NCBI GenBank assembly: GCA_963796105.1
Contig: CAWCKJ010000004.1
Location: 160,001 to 224,000, forward strand
Direction of reading: 5' to 3'
From: a candidate division FCPU426 bacterium
Lineage (GTDB): Bacteria > Oederibacteriota > Muellerivitia > Muellerivitales > Muellerivitaceae
DNA length: 64,000 bases
In this document: piece after piece, positions 345 to 8,551 of the stretch
Layout: every line of letters starts with the position of its first letter
Numbering within the stretch: the stretch's first letter is position 1
Translations under genes and position numbers: made by a program
The notes under the pieces: model-generated
Told to the model about the DNA's origin: nothing
What the model saw: only the letters and a program-made list of their open reading frames with translations
Databases searched by the model: none

Positions 345-3121
345 TTACGAACATCCGCTCGTGGACCCGCAGTTCAGGCACTTAAAGCAGGCCCCGTTGC
401 GAACCATGATGGACCCGCATTCCGAACAGGACGGCGCGTCGGACTGCGTGGCGAAAATGTTCTTCTCCCTTTTCTCCGACTCGGAGATGCCCGCGGGGGA
501 AGACTTGTGGGCGATCTTCGCGGGGGAGGCGCTGTTCAGGGTGGCGTCCTTCTCTGCCACCTCCGTCAATTCCGCCGCGCCCCTCTCGCCCGCCGCCAGG
601 AACTTGATGGCCAGCCAGCGGAAGATATAGTCGGTGATGGACTTGGCGATGCGAACTTCCGGGTTGTTGGTGATGCCCGACGGCTCATAGCGGCTGTGGG
701 AGAACTTGTTCACCAAGACCTTCAAGGGCACTCCGTATTGCAGGGCGAGCGAGATGGCGGTGGCGAAGGAATCCATCAGACCCGAGACCGTCGAGCCCTC
801 CTTCGACATGGTGATGAAGAGCTCCCCGGCTGTCCCGTCCTCGAACTTGCCCGACCGTGATATAGCCCTCGTGACCGGCGATGGAGAACTTGTGCGTGAT
901 GGCTTCCCTTTCATCCGGGAGCCTCCGGCGCACCGGCTTGTGGACCTTGGCCTTCCCCCCCTCGGAGGAGGTGGAAAGGGGCTGGGACCTCTTGCAGCCG
1001 TCGCGGTAGATGGCGACCGCCTTGAGACCCAGTTTCCAGGACTCGATGTAGGCCTGCATGATTTCCTCGGGGGTGGCCTCGTGGGGCAGGTTGACGGTCT
1101 TGGAAATGGCGCCCGACAGGAAGGGCTGGACCGCGCCCATCATGCGGATATGGCCCATGTAGTGGATGGACCTGGTGCCGTTCAATGGCTTGAAGGCGCA
1201 GTCGAACACCGGCAGGTGCTCGGCTTTCAGGTGCGGGGCGCCCTCGATGGTGTCGTGGGCCTCGATATAGGCCAGGATGTCCTTCACCTGGCTCTCGGTG
1301 TACTTCAGGTTCTTCAGGGCCTCGGGAACGGTCTGGTTGACGATCTTGATGACCCCGCCGCCCGACCAGTTTCTTGTACTTGACCAGCGCGATATCGGGC
1401 TCCACGCCGGTGGTGTCGCAATCCATCATGAAGCCGATGGTGCCGGTGGGGGCCAGAACGGTCACCTGGCCGTTGCGGAAACCCCACTCCTTGCCGCGTT
1501 TCCTGCACTTCCTTCCAGACCGTCTGGGCGGCCAGATACAGGTCCTCGGTCACGCCGTCGTGCTTGATCTTGGCGGCCTCGGCCTGGTGCATGCGCATGA
1601 CGTTGAGCATGGGCTGTTCGTTGCGGGAGTAGCCCCGGAAGGGCCCCACTTCCTTGGAAATCCTGGAGCGACATCAGGTTGGCCTCCCCCTGCATGAGGG
1701 ACGTGACCGCCGCCGCGTAATTGCGGCCCTCATCGCCGTCGTAAGGCAGGCCCCTGCGACATCAGGAGCGCGCCCAGGTTGGCGTAGCCCAGCCCCAGGG
1801 GCCGGTAGTCGTGGCTGTTGCGCTCGATGGGCTTGGTGGGATAGCTGGCGTTGTCCACAGTGATTTCCTGCGCCAGGATGGTGATATCCACCGCGTGCCG
1901 GAAGGCCTCGATGTCGAACTCGCCCTCGGGCGTCCGGAACTTCATGAGGTTCAGGGAGGCCAGGTTGCAGGCCGAATCGTCCAGGAACATGTACTCGGAA
2001 CAGGGGTTGCTCGAGTTGATGCGGGCGGTGTTGGAGGAGGTGTGCCAGCGGTTGATGGTGGTGTCGAACTGCATGCCCGGGTCGCCGCAAATCCAGGTGG
2101 ATTCCGCGATCATGCGGAGCATTTCCTTGGCCCGGTAGGTATCCATGGGGTGCCCGTCCTTGCGGGCCTTGGTGGTCCAGGTGCCGTCGTTCTGGGCGGC
2201 GCTGCATGAACTCGTCCGTGACGCGCACCGAATGGTTGGCGTTCTGGAACTGCACCGAGTCGTAGGCCCCGCCGGGAACGTTGAAACCGCCCTCGTAGCC
2301 CGCGTCAATCAGGGCCCAGGCCTTCTTCTCCTCCTCGGACTTGCTCTTGATGAAATCCACGATATCCGGATGGTCTGTGTCCAGGATGACCATCTTGGCC
2401 GCTCGTCTGGTGCGCCCGCCGGACTTGATGACGCCCGCGAAGCTGTCGTAACCCTTCATGAAGGAGACGGGGCCGGAGGCCGTGCCGCCGCCGGATAGCT
2501 TCTCCCGGCTGGAGCGAAGGGCGGAGAAGTTGGTGCCCGGTTCCCGAGCCGAACTTGAAGAGCATGCCCTCGGTCTTGGCCAAGTCCAGGATGGCTTCCA
2601 TGCTGTCGGAGACGCTGTTGATGAAGCAGGCCGAGCACTGGGGCCGGGCCTCGATGCCCACGTTGAACCAGACTGGCGAGTTGAAGGCCATTTTCTGGTG
2701 CACCAGCAGGTGGGTGAGCTCCATGTGGAAAATTTCGGCGTCCTCGTCGGATGTCAAAATAGCCCATGTCCTTTCCCCACTCGGAGATGGTATCGGCCAC
2801 GCGGCGGATCAACTGCTTGACGGATCGTTCGCGCTATGCTCGGTTCCCTGGACGCCGTGGAAGTACTTGGAGACCACGATGTTGGTGGCGGTCTGGGACC
2901 AGGGTTTGGGAACCTCGACATCCTTCTGTTCGAAAATGACCTTGCCCTTCTCGTCGGTAATGGACGCGGAGCGCAGTTCCCACTCGACCTCGTCGAAGGG
3001 ATGGATGCCCTTCGCGGGTGAAATAGCGTTTGAATTTGAGGCCACCCTCTCGGGTGAAGGTATTGGGTCGTACGAACTCTACTTTACTGGATGTGTTCGG
3101 CTGGGTCGGCTGTGCGGACAT
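345..3121 (-). CDS. nrdJ: Adenosylcobalamin-dependent (class II) ribonucleotide reductase with C-terminal TSCPD/zinc-ribbon region; split over ~11 reading-frame segments (~10 frameshifts, probably sequencing errors)
   Basis: Consecutive ORF fragments give [105 protein letters not shown] and a terminal [26 protein letters not shown] lies just upstream of the ATG at 3121. Confidence 0.95.
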
Positions 3122-3671: not shown

Positions 3672-4664
3672 TCAATTTTCGTCCTTATTTGTTTTCCCCT
3701 TGCCGGTCAACCCATCCAAATACTGCTGTTGGGCGTCATGGTTCTTGTCACTGAGCCACTCGTCGCAAAAAGAGCAGGCCACAGGCTCATCCCTCATGGC
3801 AGACAATTGTTGGCGGTACTGGCCCACCTTTTCCGTTAGGCCCAGCCTGCGGCTCAGGTCAAAACAATCGGCGATGGCGCAAAAATCCTTCGGGTGGGCG
3901 GTCAAATAACTTTCGATATATTCCAGGAGCTTCAAGGATTCGCCGTTGGTCGAGTGGACGGGGTCGTAGGATTGGACATGGTCCAAAAACTCATCCTTCG
4001 CCCCAACGAATCCCCGGCCGTTCCAGCGGAAGGGACGGCCGTAATAAATCTGGAACTCTTGCTCGTTATTGATCATGGCCTTCTGGTAATCCACCATGAG
4101 GGGTTTGCCCGATTCCTTCGCGACCCTCGGCCCCATTCCAAGCCCCTGGATGGAAGCGGATTTCCTGAAGGTTCCGTCCTTATAGATGAACACATTCGCG
4201 ATCTGGGTGATGCCCGAGGAGGAGTAAACCACCAGCTGGTCCCTTCCCTGGGCGGTCAAGTCTGCGCCCTCGAAGCCCTCGTACTTTTTGCCATCCACGA
4301 GTTCCACCTGGACGAGTTTCCAATCGTCCTTGCCCTTGTGGAAGTAGGCAAAACCAGAACCTGCGTCCTCGACCATCTGGCGTCCGAGGTTATAAACCAC
4401 CCCGTTGTCCTTATAGCCCGCGATGCCGATGATCACGTCCGACTTCGGGGAATCCGAGAAATCATGGTAGGCGATCCCGGAAACGTTCCAAAAAATCTCT
4501 TTTTTACCCTGGTATTTCTTGTTAAGTCGTTCGTTGATTTCCCCCAGGCGGATCTGACCGAAGGCGACGAGATTGGAGGCGGTATCGTCCACCGCGAATA
4601 AAGGCAGGACCGATAACTGGAATAGACCCATGATGAAAATGCTAAAAACGAACTCGGTTTTCAT
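3672..4664 (-). CDS. Secreted hypothetical protein (probable start ATG 4664)
   Basis: Long ORF with signal-peptide-like N-terminus (MKTEFVFSIFIMGLFQLSVLPLFA); no recognisable family motif. Confidence 0.7.
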   Translation of the reverse strand: MKTEFVFSIFIMGLFQLSVLPLFAVDDTASNLVAFGQIRLGEINERLNKKYQGKKEIFWNVSGIAYHDFSDSPKSDVIIGIAGYKDNGVVYNLGRQMVEDAGSGFAYFHKGKDDWKLVQVELVDGKKYEGFEGADLTAQGRDQLVVYSSSGITQIANVFIYKDGTFRKSASIQGLGMGPRVAKESGKPLMVDYQKAMINNEQEFQIYYGRPFRWNGRGFVGAKDEFLDHVQSYDPVHSTNGESLKLLEYIESYLTAHPKDFCAIADCFDLSRRLGLTEKVGQYRQQLSAMRDEPVACSFCDEWLSDKNHDAQQQYLDGLTGKGKTNKDEN

Positions 4665-4751
4665 GCCCCTGCCCCTTTCAAGCCGAAGGAAAAAGATTAT
4701 TAAAATAGGCAATGTTTCAAAAAACAAAGATTTATCAGTAAATGTTTAAGA

Positions 4752-4900
4752 TGTCATTGCGAGGAACGAATTATGTAACGAAGCAACCCAAGTTAATGGG
4801 TGGTTTTAAGTTTTCATTCACTATCAGCAAAAACATATTTAAACTTAGGTTGCTTCGTCATAAACGTCCGCCTATTCGGCGGTCAATCCTTGCAATGACA
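4752..4900. mobile_element. Non-coding palindromic element (MITE/REP-like), empty relative of the GIY-YIG element
   Basis: Ends are TGTCATTGCGAGG...ACGAAGCAACCCAAGTT and AACTTAGGTTGCTTCGT...CCTTGCAATGACA, the same end motifs as 6409-6820. Confidence 0.75.
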
Positions 4901-4979
4901 AATAAGGCTTTTTCAGGACGTAATTGTTTCATTTAGTAATTGAGTTTTCATATGTTCAAGTGCGTTTAGCTATTGTGCT

Positions 4980-6290
4980 TTAGACGCCCTTGGCTTTCAA
5001 CTGGGCCGCCAAATCCTCGTAACCCTTTTTCCCCAGGAGGGCGAACATGTTTTTCTTGTAGGCTTCCACTCCCGGCTGGTCGAAGGGGTTGATGCCCAAG
5101 AGGGTCCCGGAAATTCCGCAGGCCATCTCGAAGAAATAATAAAGGTACCCCAGCGAATACTCCGAGACCCTGTCCAGGGTCAAGCGGATGACGGGCAACC
5201 CGCCGTCCCGGTGGGCCACCGCTGTTCCCTTCATGGCCTGTTCGTTGACCCAGGAAAGCCTCTTTCCCGCGAGGAAATTCAAGCCTTCCCGGTCCTCCGG
5301 GTCCCTTGGAATCAACACTTCCTTATCCTCTTTTTGCACCCAAAGGATGGTCTCCAGCAGGGTCCTTCGCCCTTCCTGTAGGTACTGGCCCATGCTGTGC
5401 AGATCGGTGGTCAAATCCACGCTGGCGGGGAAGATGCCCTTACCTTCCTTGCCTTCCGATTCCCCATAAAGCTGTTTCCACCACTCGCCTACATAATGCA
5501 ATTCAGGCCGGAAATTAGCGAGCACCTCGATGGTCTTTCCCTTCTGATAAAGAAGGAACCTGGCCGCGGCGTAGCGGGCCGCGAGATTGACGGACAAGTC
5601 CGCCGACCTCATGTCCTTGGCCGCGTCCTGCGCCCCTTTCAGGAGCCTTCCAATGTCGAACCCCGCGATGGCGATCGGCAGGAGCCCCACGGGGGTCAGA
5701 ACGGAATAACGCCCCCCCACATCGTCCGGAATGACGAAGGTTTTGTAGCCATCCGCGTCCGCCAGATCCTTCAAGGCTCCTTTGGCCTGATCCGTCACGG
5801 CCACGATTCTCTTGCGGGCTTTTTTCTTTCCCGCTCCCTTTTCCAGCCAGGACTTCAAGATCCGGAAAGCCACGGCAGGCTCGGTGGTAGTTCCTGATTT
5901 CGAGATGACGCAAATCCCGGTTTTTTTGGGTTTCAATTCCGATAGGAGCTTCTGGAAGTCGGTGGGCGACAAGTGATGTCCGGCGAAATGGATCTTAGGC
6001 GCACCCCCGAGGGCCTCTAGGGTGGCTTTCGTCCCCAGGTAGGACCCGCCGATTCCCACGCAAACGACGTCCCTGCATTTATCAAACACCCCCGCGGCCT
6101 TCCGCAAGGCCTGAAGCTGTTTGGCCGCCGAGGAGGGAAGATCGATCCAGCCCAGGAAGTCCGCTCCCCGGCCGGTCTTTTTCAAAAGGCTCTCGAGCGC
6201 CGCTTGAACTTGCGGCTGTATGCCCTCAATGTCCTTTTCCGTCACGGTTTCCGAGATGTAGCTCAAGTCCAGGGTCAAGGGTTTTGGCAT
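4980..6290 (-). CDS. pgi: Glucose-6-phosphate isomerase
   Basis: GIGGSYLG, VISKSGTTTEP, VGGRYSVLTPVGL, WWKQLYGESEGK, DLHSMGQY and NPFDQPGVEAYK motifs. Confidence 0.97.
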   Translation of the reverse strand: MPKPLTLDLSYISETVTEKDIEGIQPQVQAALESLLKKTGRGADFLGWIDLPSSAAKQLQALRKAAGVFDKCRDVVCVGIGGSYLGTKATLEALGGAPKIHFAGHHLSPTDFQKLLSELKPKKTGICVISKSGTTTEPAVAFRILKSWLEKGAGKKKARKRIVAVTDQAKGALKDLADADGYKTFVIPDDVGGRYSVLTPVGLLPIAIAGFDIGRLLKGAQDAAKDMRSADLSVNLAARYAAARFLLYQKGKTIEVLANFRPELHYVGEWWKQLYGESEGKEGKGIFPASVDLTTDLHSMGQYLQEGRRTLLETILWVQKEDKEVLIPRDPEDREGLNFLAGKRLSWVNEQAMKGTAVAHRDGGLPVIRLTLDRVSEYSLGYLYYFFEMACGISGTLLGINPFDQPGVEAYKKNMFALLGKKGYEDLAAQLKAKGV

Positions 6291-6388
6291 GATTAGCTCC
6301 TTTTAAATAAAAAATAAGCACTAAAAAATCCGTTCATTCATCGGGAATGATATTTCGGTTCAACCTTGTTTTTTGATGAAAATCTTTT

Positions 6389-6760
6389 TTATGGAACATT
6401 TAATAGGCTGTCATTGCGAGCTTTGAATTTCAAAGCGAAGCAACCCAAGTTCATGGGTGGTTTACGCATTTGTAATTCGGATGTTAAATCCTTCCATTTC
6501 GGGTTTATACCCCGTATCAAATCAATTTTCTTTTGCCTCGAACCGCCTTTAATTTGTTTTTCTCGGGTGATTGCGGCTTTTATATCTTCGAATCCTTCAT
6601 AATAAACGAGTTTATCAGCCCTATATTTTTTAGTAAAACCTTCCTTCAACTTTAGTTTATGTTCCGCAATTCTTTTTTTGAGATCACCAGTGACACCTGT
6701 ATAGAGAGCGGTATTGTTTCTGGTAGTTGTGATGTAAACGCAATAAAGCATTTCATTCAC
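6389..6760 (-). CDS. GIY-YIG nuclease family protein (YhbQ/UPF0213-like)
   Basis: YCVYITT..LYTGVTGDLKKRIAEHK..GFTKKY..LVYYE..AITREKQIKGGSRQKKIDLI..NPKWKDL. Confidence 0.92.
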   Translation of the reverse strand: MNEMLYCVYITTTRNNTALYTGVTGDLKKRIAEHKLKLKEGFTKKYRADKLVYYEGFEDIKAAITREKQIKGGSRQKKIDLIRGINPKWKDLTSELQMRKPPMNLGCFALKFKARNDSLLNVP

Positions 6761-6820
6761 CCAAAAACTGGGGTTGCTTCGTCGCTAAAAGATTGAGGAA
6801 AAGCGCTCCTCGCAATGACA
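6409..6820. mobile_element. GIY-YIG gene enclosed by bipartite inverted repeats
   Basis: Left end TGTCATTGCGAG-(hairpin GCTTTGAA-T-TTCAAAGC)-GAAGCAACCC at 6409-6446; right end GGGTTGCTTCG...CTCGCAATGACA at 6771-6820. Confidence 0.7.
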
Positions 6821-6868
6821 TCTTAATAATTAATAAAAAAAACCAGTGATAAGCGCCGCTTCCAAGGC

Positions 6869-8551
6869 TCAGCGAATCTTAAACTTTTCCACCATCATTT
6901 TCAATTCTTCCGCCATGGCCGAGATTTCCTTGAAGGTCGCGTTGATCTGCTCCATGTTGGCGGTTTGCTCCTGGGTGGAGGCCGAGACCTCCTCGGTGGA
7001 GGCGGCCGACTCCTCGGAAACGGCGTTGATATCCTGGATGCTGTTGACGATCTTATCGTAACGCTGGTTTTGGAGCGCCACGAGGTCGGATATGCTCTTG
7101 CTGTAATGGGCAACGTTCTCGATGACCTCGTTGATCTCGTCCAGGGACCTTTCCATTTTTCGGATCCCCTCCTGGCTGACCTGGGCCTCCCTCGCGCTTT
7201 TCTCCATGGACTCCACGGCCGACAGGGTCTCATCCTGGATCAGCTGGACGACTCCCCCGATCTCATTGGTGGCTTTCGCCACACGGTCGGACAGGATGCG
7301 GATTTCCTCGGCCACCACCGCGAAACCCTTGCCGTGCTCCCCCGCCCTGGCCGCCTCGATGGCAGCGTTCAGCGACAACAGGTTGGTCTGTTCCGAGATT
7401 CCCTGGATGATTTCAACCACGCGCCCGATTTCCCGGCTCTTCTGGCCCAAATGGTGGATGAGCTCGGAATTCTTCAGGATGGTCTCATTCAAGGCCGCCA
7501 TGCGCTCGATCGTGCCCCGGGCGAGCTTGCCCCCCGCTTGGGCGGTGGAGGTGGCCTGGTCCACAGCGGAAGAGGTCTCCGCTACCCTCTTTTCGACGTC
7601 CTTCATCGTTTCCTGCATGTCCTGCATTAAATGGTGGACCTCCGAGATCTTGGACGCCTGCTCCTCCGCGCCCCTGGCGATTTGCGAGATGGTCGTGGAG
7701 ACATCCTCGCTCATGGCGGACACCTCGCCGGTGGAGTGGATCAAATCCCTCACCTGCTCCGAAAGGTGCTGGGAATGCTCCAGGACCCTTGAAACCATGG
7801 TTCGTATCTTCTCCAGGAAGGTGTTGAACCACTCGGCCATGTCCCCGATCTCGTCATGGGACCTCACCTTGATTCGGAAGGTCAAGTCCGCCTCACCCTT
7901 GGAGAAATCCATCAGTTCGGTCGTGATGGAATGGATGGGGTTCACGACGAAAACCCTCAAGAGCGGCATCAAAACCAGCATGATCGCCAGTGAAATCAAG
8001 GTCGCCAATCCGGCTGTCTGCAGGGCGGAAAACTCGACCTGGGACTCCAGCTGGGAAAGGGGGATCTCCACGTTGATCCCGCCCACCACCTTTCCTTCCG
8101 AATCCTGGACAGGAGAAAGGTACCTTAACATTTCCCCCTTCGGGGTTTTCCAGGTTTCCTCCCAGCATTTTTTCCGGGTTTGGGACCATACCAGCCTTTG
8201 CTTCAGGTCCTCCAGACGGCTTTCGTAGCCTTCCTGGTATTGGCTTCGGACCAGGATTTTTCCTTTCTTGTCGAAGAGGGAAAGGGTGCTGACCTGGAAT
8301 TGGCGGGATAGGGACGAGACCGTCTCGGAGAGGTTCTCGAAATTTTCCTTTTGGATTTGCCTGGCAAACTCCTCTTGGAGGGATTGGACGACCAGGTCCA
8401 GGTACTCGAGCTTTTGCTCCTTGAGATTCTGTTTTTGCCGCACACCATTATAAAAGCCGATGATTCCTTCCAAGGCGAAAATGGAAAGAGCCACGGTCAA
8501 GGCGATACGAAAACCCAAGTTTCTCAGGAACACTGTCGAAAACCTTTCCAA
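6869..8551 (-). CDS. Methyl-accepting chemotaxis protein (2 TM, sensor, HAMP, MA domain)
   Basis: [31 protein letters not shown] hairpin tip; HAMP region [15 protein letters not shown]. Confidence 0.95.

Follow-up and report, generated by a model that had tools for sequence, protein, structure and literature searches.

What does a solitary nuclease gene do between two inverted copies of a palindrome, with no transposase for company? The question is posed by a small cassette in the window (the whole 64,000-nucleotide stretch of DNA analysed here; Table 1), and the account that we consider probable is that a nuclease gene of the Ssn family, enclosed by two hairpins that are also dispersed around the genome, was inserted here as a unit and supplies the cuts by which gene-less doublets of the same hairpin move. 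The cassette sits in an AT-rich gap between pgi and a chemotaxis receptor gene, with a GC content of 36-40% across 6200-6799 against 52-64% within pgi. Its open reading frame (6389-6760, minus strand) counts 123 aa from GTG 6760, the first possible start, and probably begins at ATG 6751, where its relatives begin; the product (120-123 aa, below 150 aa) matches Pfam GIY-YIG PF01541 at E 1e-15 as its sole domain. No transposase was found within the arm-gene-arm unit, and a repeat search of the window recovered both inverted arm pairs. Sequence, Pfam match, repeat search and base composition alike thus bear out the preliminary description of an AT-rich, stand-alone GIY-YIG frame between inverse repeats, as they do its report that the unit holds no transposase. 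The window genome carries a single nuclease gene of this kind, and no near-identical second cassette was found in it. With the nuclease protein, NCBIfam returned no family, a PDB sequence search gave a weak UPF0213 match alone (1zg2, E 0.014) and no solved SsnA, and the phage collection held no homologue at E ≤ 1e-12; the plasmid collection yielded 30 records. Rfam over 4600-7000 found nothing at E ≤ 1, and a promoter scan at the locus gave no signal above chance.

Table 1. Features of the cassette and its neighbourhood (window coordinates)
Feature	Position	Strand	Remarks
Gene-less doublet, two inward-facing arms	4752..4900		147 bp between GTC tags; at pgi 3' end; absent at orthologous site of the sister species (G001)
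pgi (glucose-6-phosphate isomerase), host gene flanking cassette	4980..6290	-	NF010697 above cut-off
Ssn-family single-domain GIY-YIG nuclease gene	6389..6751	-	ATG 6751 likely start; 93-aa core + 27-aa read-through tail
Left arm, downstream of gene	6409..6449	+	TGTC tag, ATTGC/GCAAC outer stem, GA/GAA internal loop, 7-bp inner hairpin, CCAAG tail
CAA codon where close relatives stop	6470..6472	-	TAA or TGA in 11/11 other intact clade members examined
Right arm, upstream of gene	6768..6820	-	Tag, outer stem and tail as left arm; inner segment longer, weaker
Methyl-accepting chemotaxis protein (MCP) gene, host gene on cassette's other side	6869..8551	-	PF00015, PF00672

Both arms follow one plan, in which a GA/GAA internal loop separates an ATTGC/GCAAC outer stem from a variable inner stem, with a TGTC tag ahead of the hairpin and a C-Y-M-A-G tail after it. 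In the left arm this reads TGTCATTGCGAG-CTTTGAATTTCAAAG-CGAAGCAACCC, beginning at 6409, with an extended tail TTCATGGGTGGTTT that reaches to about 6464; the right arm is its inverse, GGGTTGCTTCG…CTCGCAATGACA at 6771-6820, and the two face inward with their TGTC tags at 6409 and 6820. The bipartite palindromic ends first described therefore stand as inverse arms and fall as two separate ends, each arm being one hairpin with an internal loop. Folding favours the left arm (MFE -8.3 kcal/mol, z -2.4), while the right (z +0.5) folds no better than its shuffles and has a weak inner stem.

Enzymes of this kind have a known family. Ssn proteins are single-domain GIY-YIG proteins (cd10448) whose cut in single-stranded DNA (ssDNA) lies a few bases to the 5' side of a CGTC-tagged hairpin (Chenal et al. 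2025, PMC11893778). According to the available text of that paper, four Ssn members were assayed and cut ssDNA beside their own hairpin, ssn genes are flanked by their own hairpin (71% being the figure for repeat-flanked Ssn genes), and NTS-ssnA-NTS units, their likeness to IS200/605 and REP systems and their possible domestication have all been described, so that the possible REP/RAYT-like unit proposed for this locus belongs to a system that is not new. By its sequence the window protein is a member of this family. SsnA orthologues were taken from two of five Neisseria genomes, N. gonorrhoeae (in place of CAX49033.1) and N. musculi; they are 94-95 aa long, carry Y6, Y17 and E64, and have 11 and 3 NTS copies around them. 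Identity between the window protein and these orthologues is 45% over 89-93 aa (E 4e-22 for N. gonorrhoeae and 1e-24 for N. musculi, with database size set to 1e6), and pairwise and multiple alignments alike show the equivalents of all three residues retained. Membership was taken as blastp E < 1e-10 over at least 75% of SsnA, and the alignment spans 89 of the 94 aa of the N. gonorrhoeae protein. In a quick IQ-TREE tree (117 rows, 98 columns, midpoint root; 64 of 114 inner branches open), a branch with SH-aLRT 96 divides 12 distant small GIY-YIG proteins from the other 105 rows, among them the query and the two Neisseria proteins, and the query's own clade (support 99) has 15 members, 12 of them from its own bacterial family. 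The window protein is thus very probably an Ssn member that cuts this two-part type of hairpin; cutting here is an extrapolation, since the published SRM pattern matches neither cassette arm. The earlier proposal that the nuclease recognises these palindromes gains support at one remove, by way of membership of a family with that habit (PMC11893778).

That pattern, HGTCWYN(0-2)YYVSBRHN(0-5)WNVSBRGN(0-2)RNCYNB, also matches none of 40 repeat copies in the genome and only one of 67 loci holding homologues of the gene. It misses the repeat on two counts, the ATTGC at the start of the stem and the greater length of the hairpin, and for want of a match we class the repeat as SRM-like rather than SRM; the string GTCATTGC is likewise absent from those supplements of PMC11893778 that were searched. 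The association of gene and repeat was measured with a pattern fixed from the window and relatives before the metagenome loci were looked at. Among 80 metagenome homologues, 67 have at least 150 bp on both sides (loci not de-duplicated, with 8 pairs at least 98% identical), and a repeat lies within 300 bp of the homologue in 59 of these, on both sides in 48, whereas of 77 control windows placed 900-1200 bp off only 2 contain one, an enrichment that the preliminary description had anticipated. The repeat adjoining those 59 is the longer two-part hairpin (GTCATTGCGAG…GAAGCAAYC). It is also present at 26 of 28 relatives' loci as opposed to 1 of 12 distant GIY-YIG genes, although the exact layout of one arm per side occurs at only 9 of the 67. 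With the SRM pattern finding one of 67 loci and the two-part pattern 59, the published 71% is probably an underestimate, and the two-part-hairpin branch would offer candidate ssDNA-cutting specificities beyond those assayed. Within the bacterial family, the gene is found in 18 of 31 genomes (E ≤ 1e-18) and the repeat in 26; genomes with the gene have a median of 24.5 copies and those without it 7 (one-sided p 0.011, a value overstated by the non-independence of kin), and 9 of the 13 genomes with no gene match still hold repeats, many of the assemblies being incomplete.

The preliminary description had proposed counting the motif genome-wide, and the count lies beyond chance. In the 4.98-Mb genome, head and tail together recover 41 copies (of 86 head matches), where two order-2 Markov simulations gave 1 and 0, and a second pattern recovers 40, against 0 for the reversed pattern used as control; these 40-41 copies are extragenic, none of the 40 falling within ORFs of at least 150 codons though such ORFs span 76% of positions. 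In 39 of 40 copies GTC precedes the stem and C follows it, in agreement with the positions important for SsnA, and the outer stem covaries (33 ATTGC/GCAA, 7 ATCGC/GCGA, 0 mixed), a pattern that may stem from a single ancestral change. Fifteen inverted pairs lie no more than 700 bp apart: one is tail-less and was dropped, one is the cassette of ~410-412 bp, and the remaining 13, that at window 4752-4900 among them, are gene-less doublets of 124-228 bp. Near the pair ends, 11 of the 15 have no direct repeat of at least 4 nt, and no consistent or fixed-length target-site duplication was seen; the cassette itself has TTAATA at 6400-6405 and 6823-6828, where chance is plausible given the AT-rich flanks. 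As internal deletions of the cassette the doublets fared poorly: when the 3' end of the gene was sought with position weights, the best of 21 doublets scored 7.0 and the cassette 23.7. Two doublets of the window genome (C10:65528-65734 and C4:1554145-1554301) are built from the cassette's two arm types. In the former, ATG CCG stands where distance would place the start, some codons resemble those for the nuclease's last residues, and by eye it looks like an internal deletion derivative; its scan score, on the other strand, is not significant (p 0.08).

If not the nuclease, another enzyme might move these repeats. An HUH transposase of the RAYT/IS200-like kind encoded elsewhere, with the GIY-YIG gene as mere cargo, would have the virtue that HUH enzymes can cut and re-join ssDNA hairpins (a point also found in the discussion of PMC11893778), and the genome does hold 16 Y1_Tnp matches. 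Yet the nearest repeat lies at least 5,036 bp from any Y1_Tnp gene, and on that distance (all 16 more than 5 kb from repeats) the HUH transposase was rejected as the repeat's partner; 4 of the 16 are on repeat-free contigs, the link between repeat and Ssn gene extends over the 67 loci, and the available text of PMC3733652 names no dedicated transposase for CGTC repeats, which together leave this explanation highly improbable. The Y1_Tnp genes themselves form a family at 16 sites in the genome (for example C12:332943 and C4:1337874), mostly as frames of 307-320 aa.

Whether the cassette moves is addressed by comparison with G001, the only congeneric genome, which is 93% complete and ~82% identical to the window genome (G000). 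G001 holds 38 repeats, and no Ssn gene was found in it. Its pgi-MCP gap has neither cassette nor repeat, so the locus does show the presence/absence variation that had been predicted, and is filled by an unrelated insertion, a 687-aa membrane-protein ORF bracketed by duplicates of the final ~41 bp of the MCP gene (L041, G001:C39:222610-224900), which resembles an integrated element with its attachment site doubled on entry. Of 38 repeat matches in G001, 30 were fetched and 7 second arms dropped, leaving 23 distinct loci; 13 of these are syntenic on both sides, and the window genome lacks a repeat at 10 of the 13 and carries one at the other 3 (2 recognised by pattern, 1 by eye). Homology to the window cassette runs arm to arm, at 67-71%, in the five closest cassettes, and the two of them tested by tblastx have no flanking genes in common with it. 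Two other cassettes, 89% identical and at different sites (L124 and L136), begin their homology exactly at TGTC and end it 2 nt beyond the other arm. Related cassettes sharing one site also occur (L114 with L116, L074 with L121), which points to vertical inheritance. No base-precise empty site was recovered from G001, its intergenic DNA being too diverged and the gap filled by the other insertion, no strain closer than G001 was found, and contigs of three sequencing runs, with a low share of this DNA, gave no joint across the cassette. Other small elements share the neighbourhood. In a further genome an Ssn gene with decayed arms lies at the 3' end of pgi (L006, G004:C4:1238645-1238920), where the window genome has a gene-less doublet, its own cassette being at the 5' end of pgi. 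A CACAGAG-type repeat, present in 15-23 copies in the window genome by two patterns, often stands at sites where G001 has the GTCATTGCGAG repeat (C3:96325-96566, C3:39009-39216, C4:499420-499633, C4:1602421-1602506 of the window genome), as though small repeats of unrelated kinds were drawn to these gaps. In G001, two doublets (L065 and L055) are nested in outer inverted repeats, of ~26 bp in L065 and weaker in L055, as though they had landed in a different palindromic element or travelled with it.

How might a lone nuclease bring this about? The enzyme would likely bind the TGTC-tagged strand of the hairpin in ssDNA and, to judge from the Ssn proteins of PMC11893778, its predicted cleavage site lies a few bases 5' to the tag; since the arms face inward, each end of the unit would be cut just on its outer side, the two cuts being on opposite strands. 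The 412-bp arm-gene-arm unit was likely inserted at the pgi-MCP gap, and likely provides the cuts that allow gene-less doublets to move. GIY-YIG enzymes hydrolyse DNA and are not known to form a covalent intermediate or to re-join ends as HUH enzymes do, so re-joining, and hence spread, would rest on host repair or recombination. We infer that the nuclease mobilises the repeats; that it is needed for their spread is a claim on which we are evenly divided. More tentative still, and in our judgement somewhat short of an even chance, is the fullest version, in which the cassette would be an autonomous element with a hydrolytic GIY-YIG protein as its only enzyme, nicking outside the TGTC ends while host repair copies or re-inserts it, and the 124-228-bp doublets would be its non-autonomous derivatives. 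Alternatively, the nuclease may serve the host through ssDNA restriction, as in Neisseria, cutting incoming or transient ssDNA at the repeats and so limiting recombination, with the repeats spreading by other routes (gene conversion, MITE hitch-hiking). This is the only in vivo function demonstrated in the available text of PMC11893778, and it accords with repeats that persist without the gene (the nine gene-less family genomes, the 38 copies of G001) and with the nested doublets L065 and L055; we nevertheless hold it possible but rather unlikely, as there are merely ~40 copies, an informal look found no clustering at particular gene classes, and the gene is patchy and mostly at different sites in relatives, a better fit to a parasite than to a retained host function. 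Should the version with an autonomous element be true, Ssn would be the long-missing mobiliser of CGTC-type REPs, and the large two-part-hairpin branch would represent ssDNA specificities uncounted in the published survey. The locus as such is ordinary, another Ssn cassette, and its interest lies in the clean design that one enzyme gene, 13 gene-less doublets and turnover against a sister species provide for asking whether Ssn mobilises CGTC-type repeats.

Set beside known systems, the closest is Ssn/SRM itself (SsnA, NMB0047/NMV_0044, of N. meningitidis; cd10448; PMC11893778), which in its available description shares the single-domain GIY-YIG protein of ~94 aa with its Y/Y/E residues, the oriented (C/T)GTC-tagged hairpins that flank the gene in a repeat-gene-repeat order and are also dispersed between genes, and the conserved C after the stem. 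The window repeat differs in its length (36-53 nt) and its two parts, a 4-5-bp ATTGC/GCAA outer stem and a variable inner hairpin about a GA/GAA loop, in numbering ~40 copies in its genome rather than hundreds, and in the 27-aa read-through tail on its nuclease. With the CGTC-tagged REP superfamily, for which the available text of PMC3733652 reports no dedicated enzyme, it shares the CGTC/TGTC tag, AT at the stem start, a CCA-type tail, a mostly extragenic distribution and frequent inverted heterodimers; families 1-4 of that superfamily have 8-9-bp stems and mostly 4-5-nt loops, a comparison by described sizes rather than by consensus, so that the window repeat may still match one of the described families. 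Judged by tag, tail and dimer habit, the window repeat belongs within this superfamily, and outside both its described stem and loop sizes and the SRM pattern. RAYT/REP/REPIN and IS200/IS605 elements likewise place one small nuclease gene between its own hairpins and scatter gene-less inverted doublets of similar size, but theirs are HUH tyrosine transposases that cut and re-join, with GTAG-tagged REPs, whereas the window enzyme is a GIY-YIG protein (PF01541) with no known strand-transfer step. Unlike a classical TIR transposon or MITE, cassette and doublets lack a target-site duplication of fixed length. One class of Rickettsia palindromic elements (RPE) presumably has the exact GTCATTGCGAG form. 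RPE-4, -6 and -7, compared by description rather than sequence (PMC3767692, in its available text), are palindromic inserts rich in an ATGAC (= GTCAT) end whose orthologous sites hold different repeat types, and they are often intragenic, in contrast to the window-genome copies (0 of 40 in ORFs of at least 150 codons). Among the papers listed by the literature searches, none gave an account of a two-part repeat paired with Ssn, or of Ssn-driven mobility, and the motif-letter matches listed were unrelated primers. What goes beyond published work is the longer, two-part form of the repeat, set apart by the SRM search pattern and available text of PMC11893778, not by its figures, together with the proposal that the enzyme spreads this repeat; also added here are the absence of the cassette at the sister-species site, the arm-to-arm homology of related cassettes and the stop-loss origin of the read-through.

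That read-through had been reported from the first, the ORF running on through the left repeat, and its cause is a lost stop. Codon 97 is a stop in 11 of 11 other intact clade members and CAA in the window gene, and it is because of this loss that the ORF overlaps the left arm; by comparison of the sequences the overlap is a lineage-specific stop loss or an assembly error, and no design feature. Contigs of the three sequencing runs, with their low share of this DNA, gave no near-identical cover of the CAA codon. The lost stop and the weakly folding right arm could instead mark the window copy as an inactive, decaying relic, of a piece with the frameshifted or internally stopped family copies L007, L008 and L016 and the decayed arms of L006. 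We think this unlikely, for the 93-aa core, catalytic residues included, is intact, as are the tags, outer stems and tails of both arms, and assembly errors are possible so near to a broken gene at 345-3045. There, on the minus strand, an apparently single long gene, which from its motifs we take to be a probable class II ribonucleotide reductase, is split into ~7 overlapping ORFs in differing frames; this suggests assembly indel errors or a pseudogene, so that single-base oddities in the window are to be trusted less far. Nearby, the gene at 3672-4727 has two tandem paralogues on contig C7, at 71-75% DNA identity.
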